Shown here piece by piece: positions 16,705-63,100 of a stretch of 64,000 bases of DNA. How positions within the stretch are numbered: the stretch's first letter is position 1; the number at the start of each line of letters is the position of its first letter. The stretch is from assembly GCA_977017645.1 (NCBI GenBank), contig OZ360219.1, forward strand, positions 289,416,001 to 289,480,000. Direction: 5' to 3'. A model generated the notes under the pieces. It worked only from the letters and a program-made list of their open reading frames with translations. It searched no databases and had not been told where the DNA came from. Origin of the DNA: Torpedo marmorata. Its lineage: Eukaryota. The translations under genes were made by a program, and so were the position numbers.

Positions 16705-17859
16705 GGTAAAAAACACAAAAGCTGGAGAACTCAGCAGGTCAAACAGTGTCTTTTATGTAGCAAAGGTAGAAATACATAACCGACGTTTCGGGCTTGAGCC
16801 CTTCATCAAAGTATGAGAAAATGCCGGCAGGCGTCCGAACAAAGGAGTGAGGGGGGAAGGGAGGTGGCAAAGGCAGGAGATGATAGGTGGAGAAAGGAGG
16901 GAGGGGACAGCAGCAAAGAGGGGGAGGAGGGATGGCTGGGTGGGTGGAAAAAAACAGGTGAGGGGGGAGGGGGGAGAGAGAACAACAAACAGGTTAGTGG
17001 AAAGCAGAAAAGTCAATGTTAATGCCATCTGGCTGGAGAGTGCCGAGACGGAATATGAGATGTTGTTCCTCCAATTTGCGGGTAGTCTGGGTGGGATAGT
17101 ACATGAGGCCATGGACAGACATGTGAGCGTGGGAGTGTGACCCAGAATTGAAATGGTTGGCTACTGGGAGGTCGCTGCTGCGGCGGACGGAGAGGAGGTG
17201 CTCAGCAAAGCGGTCTCCCAATCTCCGACCGGTCTCTCCAATGTAGAGAAAGCCACAAAGGGAGCACCGGATGCAGTAGATAAGTCCTTTGGATGTACAA
17301 GTGAAGTGTAGTTTCACTTGGAAGGCCTGTTTGGGGCCCTGGACCATGGTGAGGGGGGAGGTGTGGGCGCAGGTGTTGCACCTACTGCGGGCACAGGGGA
17401 AGGTTCCGGGGGTGCGATGGGTGGGGAGGGACGAGTGCACGAGTGAATCGCGGAGGGAGCGGTCCCTGCGGAAGGCCGAGAGGGGAGGAGAAGGAAAAAT
17501 GTGTCTGGTGGTGGGATCCTGCAGCAAGTGCCGGAAATTCCGGCGGATAATGTGTTGGACGCGGAGGCTGGTGGGGTGGTAGGTGAGGATGAGGGGTACT
17601 CTATGTTTGTTGCGTCTGGGGGCAGAGGGGGCCAGGGCAGATGAGCGGGAAATGGAGGAGATGCGGGTGAGGGCTGAGTTGATGGTGGTGGAAGGGAAGC
17701 CACGTTTGTGGAAAAAGGCAGACATTTCCCTTCCACCACCATCAACTCAGCCCTCACCTACCTTTGCTACATAAAAGACACTGTTTGACCTGCTGAGTTC
17801 TCCAGCTTTTGTGTTTTTTACTACATTATTACGGTGTCTACAGATTTCCGTGTTTACTT
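16705..17859 (-). mobile_element. Penelope-like retroelement, 5'-truncated, with GIY-YIG endonuclease ORF and inverted terminal (pLTR) segment
   Basis: ORF 16994-17725 contains HFTCTSKGLIYCIRCSLCGFLYIGETGRRLGDRFAEH...NHF...RKLEEQHLIFRLGTLQPDGIN (GIY-YIG). ~65-bp inverted ends. 14-bp TSD cttgtcttaaatat at 16691-16704 and 17860-17873. Confidence 0.9.
16775..16815 (-). ncRNA. Minimal type I hammerhead ribozyme-like motif in Penelope pLTR
   Basis: Minus strand CAUACU-UUGAUGA-A-GGGC UCAA GCCC-GAAAC-GUC-GGUUAUG: core boxes (C3U variant), stem II, palindromic ACGU stem III, GUC cleavage triplet, imperfect stem I. Confidence 0.6.
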
Positions 17860-18195
17860 CTTGTCTTAAATATATTTACTGCTTCAATGGGCAGCGAATT
17901 CCACAGATTCACCACCCTCTGGGAAAAGCAGTTCCTCCTCATCTCCGTCCTAAATCTAGTAGCCTGGATCTTGAGGCTATGTCCTCTTGTTCTAGTCCCC
18001 CCCCCCCACCCCCCCCCACCAATGGAAACAACTTACCTACCTCTATCTTATCTATGGCTTTCGTAATTTTATAGGTTTCTATGAGATCCCCTCTCATTTT
18101 CTAAATTCCAGCGAGTACAGTCCCAGACAACTCATTCTCTCCTCACTGGCTAACCCCCTCTGAGTTCATTTAGAGACATTACTGGTCATACTTAC

Positions 18196-18266
18196 ACATC
18201 ACTCTGGTGGGTGTAGACTCTGTCGAATAAAGCCTCCGGGGCCATCCACTTCACTGGCAGTCTACC
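18196..18266 (-). CDS. FGFR3: FGFR3 kinase exon (71 nt)
   Basis: cag|GGT AGA ... GAT GT|gtaagt. Translates [24 protein letters not shown]. Confidence 0.97.
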
Positions 18267-59732: not shown

Positions 59733-60165
59733 CAAATGTGATGGACCAACTCAGCAAGCCACGCAGCATCCCAAGGTAACCAACATTTCGGGCCTGACCC
59801 CTTCGTCAAAAAGAAGAAAAAACAGGCAGTTCCCCACTGTTCCCCACGCTCCAGCTGCCCACTCCACTCCCTACCCTCTGCCCTCTCCCCATCACTTCTC
59901 AGCTTTTTTTTTCTTCTGCCCTCCCACCTGTCTCCACTTATTGCCTCTTACCTGTTTGTCTGTGCTCCTCCCCCTCCCCTTCCTCCCTCCTCCCCCCACC
60001 ATTTTATTCAGGCGTTTGCCTCTTTTTTTTCTTATTCCTGATGAAGGGCTCAGACCTGAAACGTTGGTTACGCTTTATTCCCATGAATCTTGCGAGATCG
60101 GCTGAGGTTTTCCAGCATTTTTGTGTGTTGCACTTGACCCCAGCATCTGCAGATTTTCTTATTTA
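59733..60165. mobile_element. Fold-back Penelope derivative with two opposed hammerhead-like motifs
   Basis: Minus motif ~59777-59810 (UUGACGA-AGGGGUCAGGCCC-GAAAU-GUU) and plus motif 60031-60071 (CUGAUGA-AGGGCUCAGACCU-GAAAC-GUU). Pyrimidine tract as in the Penelope 3' region. Confidence 0.7.
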
Positions 60166-63100
60166 GCTCCACTCCCGATGGTGTTTGAGTGGTGGGAATG
60201 GCACTGATGAATGGGGACCTCAGCAACAACTCACAGACCATACTGCACTCAGTCTCCTTCACTCTGTGTTTGCAAGGTCCTGTGCATCAGTTCAAAAAAC
60301 AGTCTTGAAAAATCTACTCCCCTGATAATATTCTGTGCTTGTAGCCATGCCAGAACCCTGCTGCTGGGTGCACAAGTACATAAAGAGACATTTTAACATT
60401 TGATGAGTGAAGTTTCATGCCCAGCACTGACTGCTGAGGAAATAAACAAGATGGCAAGTCCCAGTGAGATGGAGGAATACAGAGGCTCATTTACAAGAAG
60501 GAAAGGTTCTTTAAACTGTTGGAAGGCCTGTGGTGTGAAACACGCTCATGTAAGTTACTTATACACATGCTCACATTCATTGAAGTTGCCTCTGCTGAAC
60601 AAGGACTCAATGTTATTCCACCCACTGGGAAGTTGCCTGTGTGGGTGGTGGGGGGTGTGGGGAGAGTGACACCTTAACTGAAATGTGAACAAGGTGCAGA
60701 TATCCCTCCCTACCCCGTGTTAATGCTTGTTATGAGTCACTTGGGGATTCTCAGCATATCAAAGAGATCACGTTCTGTCCAAATCAGCAGGAATCCCATA
60801 TGACTTTCCTCTTTCAGGCACTGTCACCAATGTTATGCCCATCTACGACTATCGAGACCTTCTGGGTGAAATGGCTCGATTGGTCACTGGATGAATATTC
60901 GGTATTACAGAAACAAGTTTCATCAAGGCCCCACTCGGGTTCTGAGGTGCTCACTCTGGTCGATGAACAGCAGGAAATATCTGGTTCTGAAGGAAGGTCA
61001 GGACATGCTTTTACTCCGCAAATGATGAGTGTTTACAGCATTCCAGGCTTTTGTGAGCTGCTCCGCATTTCATCTTTGACTGATACACAAGAAAGAGTTC
61101 AAACGCAAAAATCTGCGGGTGCTGGAAATCTGAAATGGGCAGTGCTAGAAACACTCAGCCGGTCAGACAGTGGAAGGAAAAACAGAGTTACCCTTTGTAG
61201 GTTAAACATGGAATCGTACAGCATAGGAACAGGCCCTTCAACCCACGATGTTTGCACAAAACACGATGCCAAATTAAACCAAATCTCTTCTGCCCTGCAT
61301 ATTCATGTGTCTATCCAAATGTGTCTCTCAGTACTATCATACGTTGATCATCTTTCATCAGGGCTAAAAGTCAACGAGATGCAGTCCCGATGAAAGGTCA
61401 TTGACCTGAAACCTTAAGTCTGCTTCTCTCTACACAGAAACACCTGAAACTTTGGTTATATATCTTTATCTTTGCTATATAAAGTACACTGTTTGACCTG
61501 CTGAGCTTCTCCAGCCTTGTGTTTTTATTTAGGATGGTTGAAGGGCCTGATTCTGTGCTGTAGAGCTTTATAACAGTTAAGGAGGAGAAAGAATGCTGGA
61601 TCTGCCAGTGAAGCCAACCACCAAGAAAGATTTTATATAAATAGTTCTGTTGTGCATTACAACAAAAAGGAAGAGATGTTCTGAATCATGAATTAAATGG
61701 TCAAAGTTTCTATAGTCCCTCTTTCCATGCTTGACTGGTGCAGTCAAAGACCATGTCAAGTCAAGTCAAGTTTATTGTCATCTGATTGTACAAGTACAAC
61801 CTGACGAAACAGCGTTCTCCCGTCCTCGGTGCAAAACATGCAGACACAGAACCAGACATAATACACATGCAGACAAACAATACATATGCAGGACAAGTAT
61901 TTCATCCATACAAATGAATAAATAAACATTGTTTCATGAATATGAGAGTCTCGGATGGTTAGTGTGAGCAGTTCCTTTGGTTGTTCAGCATTCTCACTGC
62001 CCGTGGGAAGCTGAGGAGACGAGCACATAAACACTGCTGCGCTGGTGTTCCACATAACAAGAGCTTGAAATAACACTAAATTCGTAGCCTAAATTATTAC
62101 TGGTCATCTGCAGCTCACATTCTCCCAAAATGGTCGTGGGACTGGTTTATTTTATTTTCTTTTCCCAGTGAGTGGCATGTGTTCTCGATTACAAACCAAA
62201 GCTGGCAGTGGTGGTAAGTGTAGGTTGGGGTCAACCCCATTCACAACCCAGGTGTCACTAACTTGCCAAATACTAAGGAGATGCTCGCTGGCAGCCTGGC
62301 ACCATTAGAGCTGTTATTAGCATCCAACCTTCTGCCAGGAGCTCCCACCTGTCAGGTCACCGAGACAAGCAGAGTGGAAATATTGTCACTCAGGACATCC
62401 TATAAGAGAACCTTTCCTGTTCTGTTAAAAATCTCTCTCAAGCCAATCATTAGCCCCATAAATATCAGAAAGAGGTTTTCTCCAAGACGTGGATTAGTGG
62501 AGCTACACTCTTGCCCCACACCGTATGGATAGGAAAGGCTTGGAGGGATATGGGTCGAATGCAGGCAAATGGAACTGGCTTGGTTGGCATAGACAGGTTG
62601 GTCAAAGGGCCTGCTTCTGTGCTGTAGAACTCTATGACTCTATTCAATTCCCCTTCTGGTGCTTGCACTGTTGCTGGACTTCCTCACTGAGAGACTGCTC
62701 CAGAGGAACAGCTGATCCAGAAACCCTCTGCTTGTTCCCAGTGCTTCAGCTATATTCACAAGCTCATGCCACCATATCCAAATAAACAACACGAGGCTGC
62801 CTGTCATATTTCATTAGATACAATTTTCTGCGGCAGAATAAGAATGATACACAATTGTAAATTAACTGATGTCTCTGGGCTATTTCCAAAAGATGTGATA
62901 AATATAAAAATATGCATTTTTAAAATTAAATTATCAAATCTGTCTGGATGGAATCCTTGATCTGTAACTCACTGCTGGACATCATCGGGTAGTGGAGACA
63001 GAGCTTCTCACCACAATTAAAAGGGATCTAGACATGAATCACCAAGGCTGAGAAGGCCAGGGACTAAGTGCTGGTAAATGGGATTAGTATAGATAGGTAC

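Follow-up and report, generated by a model that had tools for sequence, protein, structure and literature searches.

Penelope-like hammerhead motifs in the FGFR3 introns of Torpedo marmorata

Do hammerhead motifs that lie scattered through the introns of a gene cut the transcript of that gene, or are they what a retroelement left behind? We ask this for a stretch of 64,000 nucleotides (nt) of Torpedo marmorata (assembly GCA_977017645.1, contig OZ360219.1, positions 289,416,001 to 289,480,000), the whole of which we call the window, and in which FGFR3 lies on the minus strand. Minimal hammerheads are known from the pseudo-long terminal repeats (pLTRs) of Penelope-like elements (PLEs), and from thousands of solo copies (PMC4209133). 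The motifs in the window are very probably debris of such pLTR hammerheads, lodged in the FGFR3 introns and not acting on the host. As it stands, this finding contains little that is new: PLE pLTR hammerheads and their solo debris have already been described.

A hammerhead-type motif in Penelope-like terminal repeats

The original prediction named eleven motif sites in the introns of a minus-strand FGFR3. Gene, strand and intronic placement all hold. The best PDB matches of the kinase exon at 22.2 kb are FGFR3 kinase structures, 15 coding exons are anchored from Ig2 to the C-terminus (2800..45165, minus strand, limits approximate), and every hammerhead copy in the window sits in an FGFR3 intron. 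The acid-box exon (at about +64.9 kb) and the Ig1 exon (about +81.2 kb) are outside the window. Direct reading of the letters finds 11 of the 11 sites at their coordinates and on their strands. A profile of the pLTR end recovers 10 of them, and the eleventh, at 61382, which had served to seed the profile, was read from the letters. All the named sites are real, but the list was incomplete: it left out copies at ~3960 (+), ~5010 (+), 24474 (+), 29782 (+) and ~48370 (-). Several subfamilies, which differ in age, are represented among the window copies. Their framing as a feature of FGFR3 has to be given up, since the same motif occurs genome-wide, about once per 52 kb.

That the motifs belong to the pLTRs of GIY-YIG PLEs is borne out by the anatomy of the element, by its reverse transcriptase (RT) and GIY-YIG domains, and by the position of the motif in the pLTR. 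The layout is pLTR, open reading frame (ORF), pLTR, with a hammerhead in each pLTR and a spacing of ~3.7 kb per unit. Longer genomic members carry RT and GIY-YIG in a single frame; in a 684-aa open stretch (locus L105), PF00078 matches with E=0.00045 and PF01541 with E=0.021, both below the curated cut-offs. The ATG lies ~150 nt downstream of the cut site, and at 9 of 30 ORF-start loci there is a hammerhead ~180 nt before it. The ORF has 635 homologues at E<=1e-20, and the closest named proteins come from rays and sharks (Mobula 75%, Hypanus 69%). The Hypanus protein carries the annotation of a divergent protein kinase domain 1C isoform; its gene model has probably taken in an element.

The element resembles the Neptune and Nematis PLEs with endonuclease (EN+) described by Craig et al. 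(bioRxiv 10.1101/2021.04.23.441226), where the RT is followed by a C-terminal GIY-YIG of the CCHH type, with a CX2-5CXXC linker. It also has the other traits given there for PLEs: partial tandems that form pLTRs, an inverted 5’-truncated copy, a tail of 30-40 bp, and a target-site duplication (TSD) of variable length (here 14, 10 and 10 bp). Judged by its motifs, the carrier would be a Neptune/Nematis-type EN+ PLE, which may be either a Neptune or a Nematis. Genome-wide, a 26-nt core is present in 69,272 identical copies, and a looser pattern finds 119,946 core-intact motifs, equally on both strands. The ~120,000 copies here compare with 4,000-9,000 in coelacanth and Xenopus (PMC4209133).

The core of the motif, U4 G5 A6 N7 G8 A9 ... 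G12 A13 A14 A15.1 and U16.1-H17, is intact in the copies at 16775 and 27801, and damaged in most others. The family has an extra base after A9, a G10.1-C11.1 pair and a palindromic 15.2-16.2, and is without stem III, all of which Cervera and De la Pena list as traits of minimal hammerheads (PMC4209133). The claim that palindromic ACGU replaces stem III is correct for the best copies. Also shared with the published PLE set are the type I form, the palindrome as the only pairing at 15.2-16.2, the place of the extra base between 9 and 10.1, the presence of the motif in both pLTRs, and the many solo copies. In Fig. S3 of Cervera, the stem II of the Acropora Neptune row, GGGC with a loop of 4 nt, resembles the one here (PMC4209133).

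We searched with a descriptor of the minimal hammerhead (N3 UGANGA, an optional extra base, a stem II with 4 or more pairs, GAAA, a paired NN, UH) in which position 3 is left free. It matches twice in the window (16782-16809 and 27808-27835) and not once in any of 30 dinucleotide shuffles; random genome sampled at 52 arbitrary places, 520 kb in all, gives 11 matches, and five shuffles give 0, 0, 1, 1 and 0. The Rfam scan reports no hammerhead family at E<=10, a silence that is expected because the motif has no stem III.

The alignment used for covariation holds 85 profile-selected copies, with counts that are not independent of subfamily descent. Three stem pairs show compensatory changes between subfamilies, namely 2.2-1.2 (CG in 41 and UA in 16, n=76), 2.3-1.3 (AU in 34 and GC in 10, n=63) and 10.4-11.4 (CG in 50 and UA in 14, n=84), a level that none of 2000 shuffles reached for any of the three. 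Among 1409 column pairs, these take ranks 2, 3 and 6; seven further pairs tested in the 85 copies have no clear compensation. The predicted covariation of stem II between copies stands, but stem II of the copy at 61382 consists of 5 bp and a 3-nt loop (AGGUC-AUU-GACCU), not of 6 bp and 1 nt. Among 73 older copies, G5, A6, A9, A13, A14, A15.1 and U16.1 are 89-97% conserved, while the flanks are mostly at 45-80%; G12 and the CG palindrome, which are at CpG sites, are often lost. Both expectations for a genuine family, compensation in stems I and II and a core more conserved than its flanks, agree with what we find. Covariation and core conservation together therefore indicate a real hammerhead-type structure, selected in the lineage of the element. 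At the level of the element, the reading as a minimal type I hammerhead holds, with self-cleavage 3’ of H17, as a dimer or with the help of protein, as a putative property.

A chance likeness of some repeat to the hammerhead consensus has a negligible probability. It could appeal to the silence of Rfam and to the monomer folds, whose stability is unremarkable (z between -1.8 and +1.1 against shuffles, for 12 sequences). Against it are the empty window shuffles, the fixed place in PLE pLTRs, the agreement with the published consensus in the extra base, the G10.1-C11.1 pair and the CG palindrome, and the compensation in two stems. We consider it ruled out by covariation and by position in the element.

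The U3.G8 core pair

In both best copies, position 3 is U and not C. The genome-wide pattern matches include 116,954 with U3 and 2,992 with C3, and C3 occurs in 460 of the 69,272 exact cores. All 84 young copies anchored outside the core have U3, as do all 36 of an overlapping sample and 47 of 69 older copies. G8 is unchanged whatever the base at position 3, and there is no 3-8 covariation. Some older subfamilies keep C3; the AGGUC/GACCU type has C3 in 5 of 6 matches, and UC at 2.1-3 in 4 of 6. A second relaxed core position besides U3 is position 4, which is C in 10 of 70 older copies.

In the active hammerhead core, C3-G8 is a Watson-Crick pair (PMC3884650, PMC3088659). The published descriptor (cuganga) requires this pair, which most copies here do not have, and it would miss them because it demands C3. 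The U3.G8 combination makes up 97.5% of the matches here against 1 of 56 rows in Cervera Fig. S3, that of the PLE-associated Saccoglossus kowalevskii (1), where U3 stands with G8 as here; two schistosome rows are U3-A8, and 0 of the 56 rows are from cartilaginous fish (PMC4209133). In four sequencing runs (assembled contigs, 85% identity filter), no alternative base at position 3 reaches 5% of depth or more, a weak hint that U3 is common to related organisms. A literature search, with subscription journals and bioRxiv supplements outside its scope, had no further paper on C3U or U3-G8 hammerheads among the matches listed, and within the same limits the matches listed for Penelope or Neptune hammerheads in cartilaginous fish were all unrelated shark papers. 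The U3.G8 form is already in print; added here is an expanded U3.G8 family in more than 100,000 copies.

A U.G wobble at 3-8 slows cleavage. With this wobble in place of C3-G8 in more than 100,000 copies, the family is a natural test of whether PLEs need RNA cutting. One bold reading takes U3.G8 for an attenuating change that enabled 10^5 copies, with cutting only in the presence of the element’s own protein. We hold it to be improbable. If it were true, tens of thousands of young intronic copies, including the two of FGFR3, would be latent cut sites in host pre-mRNA in cells that express the element.

Host pre-mRNA and the element’s own transcript

The original prediction proposed that distant copies on the strand of the FGFR3 pre-mRNA pair through ACGU and cut its introns. 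The pLTR-end profile has 25 matches in the window, on both strands. A retrained profile, built on random-sample matches only, has 20, of which 12 are minus (sense) and 8 plus (antisense), which gives no strand preference for the pre-mRNA (p=0.50). There are 2 intact young copies in the window, for an expectation of 1.2 per 64 kb, and the neighbours of the window have 22 pLTR ends in 110 kb.

That sense copies in separate introns meet through ACGU and cut FGFR3 pre-mRNA during transcription is very unlikely. In its favour, the two best copies are both sense, have stem I strands in common and keep ACGU, and minimal hammerheads are able to cut as dimers (PMC4209133, PMC6765202). However, of the 8 named sense copies only two, 16775 and 27801, have a core that is intact apart from U3; three have lost G12, which is the general base of the hammerhead (PMC6155905), and three have lost the palindrome. 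The only copy with an all-canonical core (60031) is antisense. A dimer fits only copies of the same subfamily, because stem I forms between the partners, and in 27801 the base of that stem is mismatched (G.G). Between these sole two candidates there are 11 kb and 7 exons. In a nearest-neighbour model, which ignores tertiary contacts and protein help, self-pairing of ACGU is worth -1.7 kcal/mol, and the active dimer reaches -13.7 kcal/mol, whereas two misfolded monomers come to -23.6 and the most stable inactive co-fold to -31.0. Pairing with antisense copies on the same transcript yields -92 to -170 kcal/mol, and one of these copies, near-perfect, is 2 kb from element 2 (the insertion that carries 27801) in the same intron. 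To this we add the even use of strands, the near-neutral decay described below, and a motif every ~52 kb of genome. Core damage, spacing, dimer energy, antisense competitors and decay all speak against the proposed pairing. If intronic copies did cut host pre-mRNA, rays would have a genome-wide layer of RNA processing, and the evidence points against it.

Decay can be followed in ~90,000 copies (88,772, 94,145 and 96,322 matches in the counts of catalytic and control sites). The change per site is 0.84% at seven catalytic A/T positions and 1.16% at seven non-catalytic ones, and the rare-variant rate of the flanks, 0.87%, is near the catalytic one. Core bases are lost after insertion at a near-neutral rate. 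The literature describes minimal hammerheads as without activity as monomers and with little as dimers (PMC4209133). The Anolis PLE hammerhead requires the element’s protein, insertion in vitro does not depend on the motif, and none of the RNA-seq reads started or ended at its cut site (PMC11167929). These published results are in line with low activity.

Several points weigh against our reading of the motifs as inert debris of a hammerhead, besides the tertiary contacts and protein help that the folding energies ignore. The density of pLTR ends in the window is about twice that of random genome (20 in 64 kb vs 91 in 620 kb; resampling p ~0.02, with regional clustering ignored). The non-CpG catalytic sites have 0 differences in 837 among the 84 young copies, where flanks have ~0.9% rare variants, and 3 in 360 in the overlapping sample. 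The catalytic sites are also 28% less changed than controls genome-wide, which leaves room for some selection on the core; weak selection that acts by way of re-transposition could account for the gap, and so could variation among subfamilies at the control sites. The column pair that ranks first in the covariation analysis is not a stem pair, and therefore subfamily descent inflates the covariation counts. Finally, U3.G8 may be the sign of an expanded family that has no cutting activity.

What the motif would do for the element can be approached from how copies begin and end. They end in a tail 75-115 nt beyond the cut site, and run upstream through the cut site for variable lengths. By analogy with Anolis (PMC11167929), reverse transcription would start in the tail, downstream of the hammerhead, and nearly every insertion, however short, would hold the motif because of this start. 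The set of 5’ ends comes from young copies (L181-L270, contig C1, first 6 Mb), in which fold-back arms are counted separately and not all are independent. Of its 111 copies, 43 start between -60 and +54, with no excess at the predicted cut site (2 at +29, where 1.5 are expected). A linear RNA cut at GUC would leave stubs starting at +27. Because copies run through the cut site with no excess of 5’ ends there, the template would be uncut or re-ligated RNA, two cases that DNA cannot separate. The 5’ ends do cluster just before the core, with 12 of the 43 nearby ends at -6..+1, where 3 are expected, and many of these are at inversion junctions; the cluster may reflect a pause or a template switch of the reverse transcriptase.

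The same origin with a motif that no longer cleaves is a possible but less favoured explanation. In it, U3.G8 (and U4C in some old subfamilies) would mark a former ribozyme that now serves purely as an RNA structure, perhaps as a site where the element’s protein binds or pauses. It draws on the prevalence of U3 in young and older copies without covariation of positions 3 and 8, on the 2 of 43 ends near the cut site next to the 12 before the core, and on hammerhead mutants that still insert in vitro (PMC11167929). But the seven core bases stay at 89-97% in the 73 older copies while their flanks are widely different, U.G retains a wobble pair, and a circular re-ligated template would likewise leave no ends at the cut site. 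Most likely, in our view, the motif is a slow ribozyme, assisted by dimer formation or by protein, that would process the element’s own tandem transcript, with the core kept by selection on that transcript. A role in the RNA of the retroelement is the likely reason that the motifs exist. In FGFR3, 5’-truncated PLE insertions of several ages have landed in the introns and then decayed, likely without cutting host RNA.

A family of non-coding retrozymes, or of short interspersed element (SINE)-like repeats, spreading alone by circular RNA is a very unlikely source of the copies. Most window copies are short with little or no ORF, and animal retrozymes derive from PLE pLTRs (bioRxiv 10.64898/2026.07.22.740005). 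Yet the window has no head-to-tail hammerhead repeats, and the 5’ ends fall anywhere between the motif itself and points kilobases upstream in the RT-EN frame, as for truncated PLE insertions. The non-LTR retrozymes in that source are, like the motif here, type I hammerheads related to PLE pLTRs, but they are non-coding tandem arrays, and for the young family, which consists of dispersed and variably truncated ends of a protein-coding element, this origin is largely refuted.

We compared the motif with two more systems. The Anolis Poseidon element PAc (Frangieh et al. 2024, PMC11167929) also has its pLTR hammerhead upstream of the tail at the end of the copy, and its copies also cross the cut site; unlike the element here, PAc has C3-G8, starts its ORF within the motif, where here the ATG follows the cut site, and is of another clade. 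The amniote intronic hammerheads of RECK, CTCL and DTNB (PMC6155905) share the type I form, the vertebrate intron and the kinship with retroelements, but they are single, canonical and kept across species, whereas here there are ~10^5 decaying copies without stem III. A domesticated intronic hammerhead of the RECK/HH9 type was rejected for the window, where the motif has neither stem III nor a canonical monomeric fold, and where the core of the monomer is predicted to mispair with the cut-site strand.

Copies and neighbouring features in the window

Element 1 (16705..17859, minus strand) is a 5’-truncated Penelope-like insertion that sits in an FGFR3 intron, the one separating kinase exons K5 and K6. 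It is flanked by a 14-bp TSD (left 16691..16704, right 17860..17873), and consists of an inverted pLTR end with tail, a short internal inversion, the end of the RT thumb and linker, GIY-YIG, and the 3’ pLTR. The inverted partial pLTR at its 5’ end (17758..17859, plus strand) is without a hammerhead core. An open-frame remnant (16994..17746, minus) has a CX4CXXC linker at 17395 (CARSRCNTC) and a CCHH-type GIY-YIG at 17281 (IYCIRCSLC...YIGET, with histidines downstream); PF01541 matches this frame with E=0.0011, below the curated cut-off. Its minimal hammerhead (16775..16815, minus) is U3.G8 and otherwise intact, with position 3 at 16809 and a predicted cut at 16782/16781. The host site of element 1 is the LINE-like 3’ end of another dispersed repeat.

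Element 2 (27731..28696, minus) is a 5’-truncated insertion of a related subfamily, 81% identical to element 1, in the IIIc-TM intron, and its 5’ end runs into a stretch of N. Its minimal hammerhead (27801..27841, minus) is U3.G8 with a G2.1.G1.1 mismatch at the base of stem I, and a predicted cut at 27808/27807. A young fold-back pLTR stub in the same intron (29697..29922, plus, 10-bp TSD) has a hammerhead that ends before G8. On the pre-mRNA, the plus-strand arm of this stub is antisense to both element 1 and element 2. Another fold-back pLTR stub (24391..24579, plus, antisense to FGFR3), also with a 10-bp TSD, has a truncated and damaged hammerhead (ACAU).

Three old-subfamily copies on the minus strand are at 38207..38238 (U3, G12 lost), 38585..38620 (U3, U4C, G8A, G12A) and 38701..38735 (U3, G12A, stem II GGGU/ACCC; read by eye). 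They fall within 600 bp (38140-38740, sense) of the intron that precedes the alternative IIIb/IIIc exons; two of them are 116 bp apart, and G12 is lost in all three. Also on the minus strand are an old copy at 41021..41055 (U4C, G8A, U16.1C, palindrome lost, 2 of 4 stem II pairs) and copies at 54886..54920 (U3, palindrome lost to ACAU) and 59777..59810 (U3, palindrome lost to AUGU, 3 of 4 stem II pairs). On the plus strand, antisense to FGFR3, are a copy within a fold-back stub at 52971..53006 (C3, G12A, palindrome lost); the one copy in the window whose core bases are all canonical, C3-G8 included, at 60031..60071 (U17, 3 of 4 stem II pairs); and a copy of the oldest type at 61382..61420 (stem II AGGUC/GACCU, U4C, palindrome lost; read by eye), followed by a younger pLTR stub. 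Profile matches outside the first list include decayed copies at 3950..4058 and 5007..5100, both plus, and a heavily decayed fold-back stub at 48362..48532, to which we assign no strand as a whole.

Two observations concern the family elsewhere in the genome. Sixteen of the 30 ORF-start matches have 1 kb or more of upstream flank in common, and their 5’ end lies past the hammerhead; these loci, many on contig C79 and on small contigs, are one near-full-length insertion multiplied within a larger repeat. Two loci 87 kb apart on contig C1 (L218 at ~1.976 Mb, L220 at ~2.063 Mb) have an identical 40-nt inversion junction and non-element filler, which suggests a fold-back stub that was copied again, or a local duplication.

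The FGFR3 introns hold other repeats. Long minisatellites lie at 11636-13450 (42-bp units), 9988-10418 (50/33), 47362-47904 (36) and 53820-54157 (48-61). Near-perfect palindromes occur at 21455-21597 (60-nt arms, 97%) and 35851-36014 (80-nt arms, 100%), neither of which is a match to the pLTR profile. Other dispersed repeats, like the ends of short or long interspersed elements (SINE, LINE) and with 4-14 copies in the window, include 4844-4898, 23824-24028, 42577-42762 and 44557-44743, among others. Both alternative Ig3 exons of FGFR3, IIIb and IIIc, are present with open frames, at ~32770-32620 and ~31850-31700 on the minus strand.

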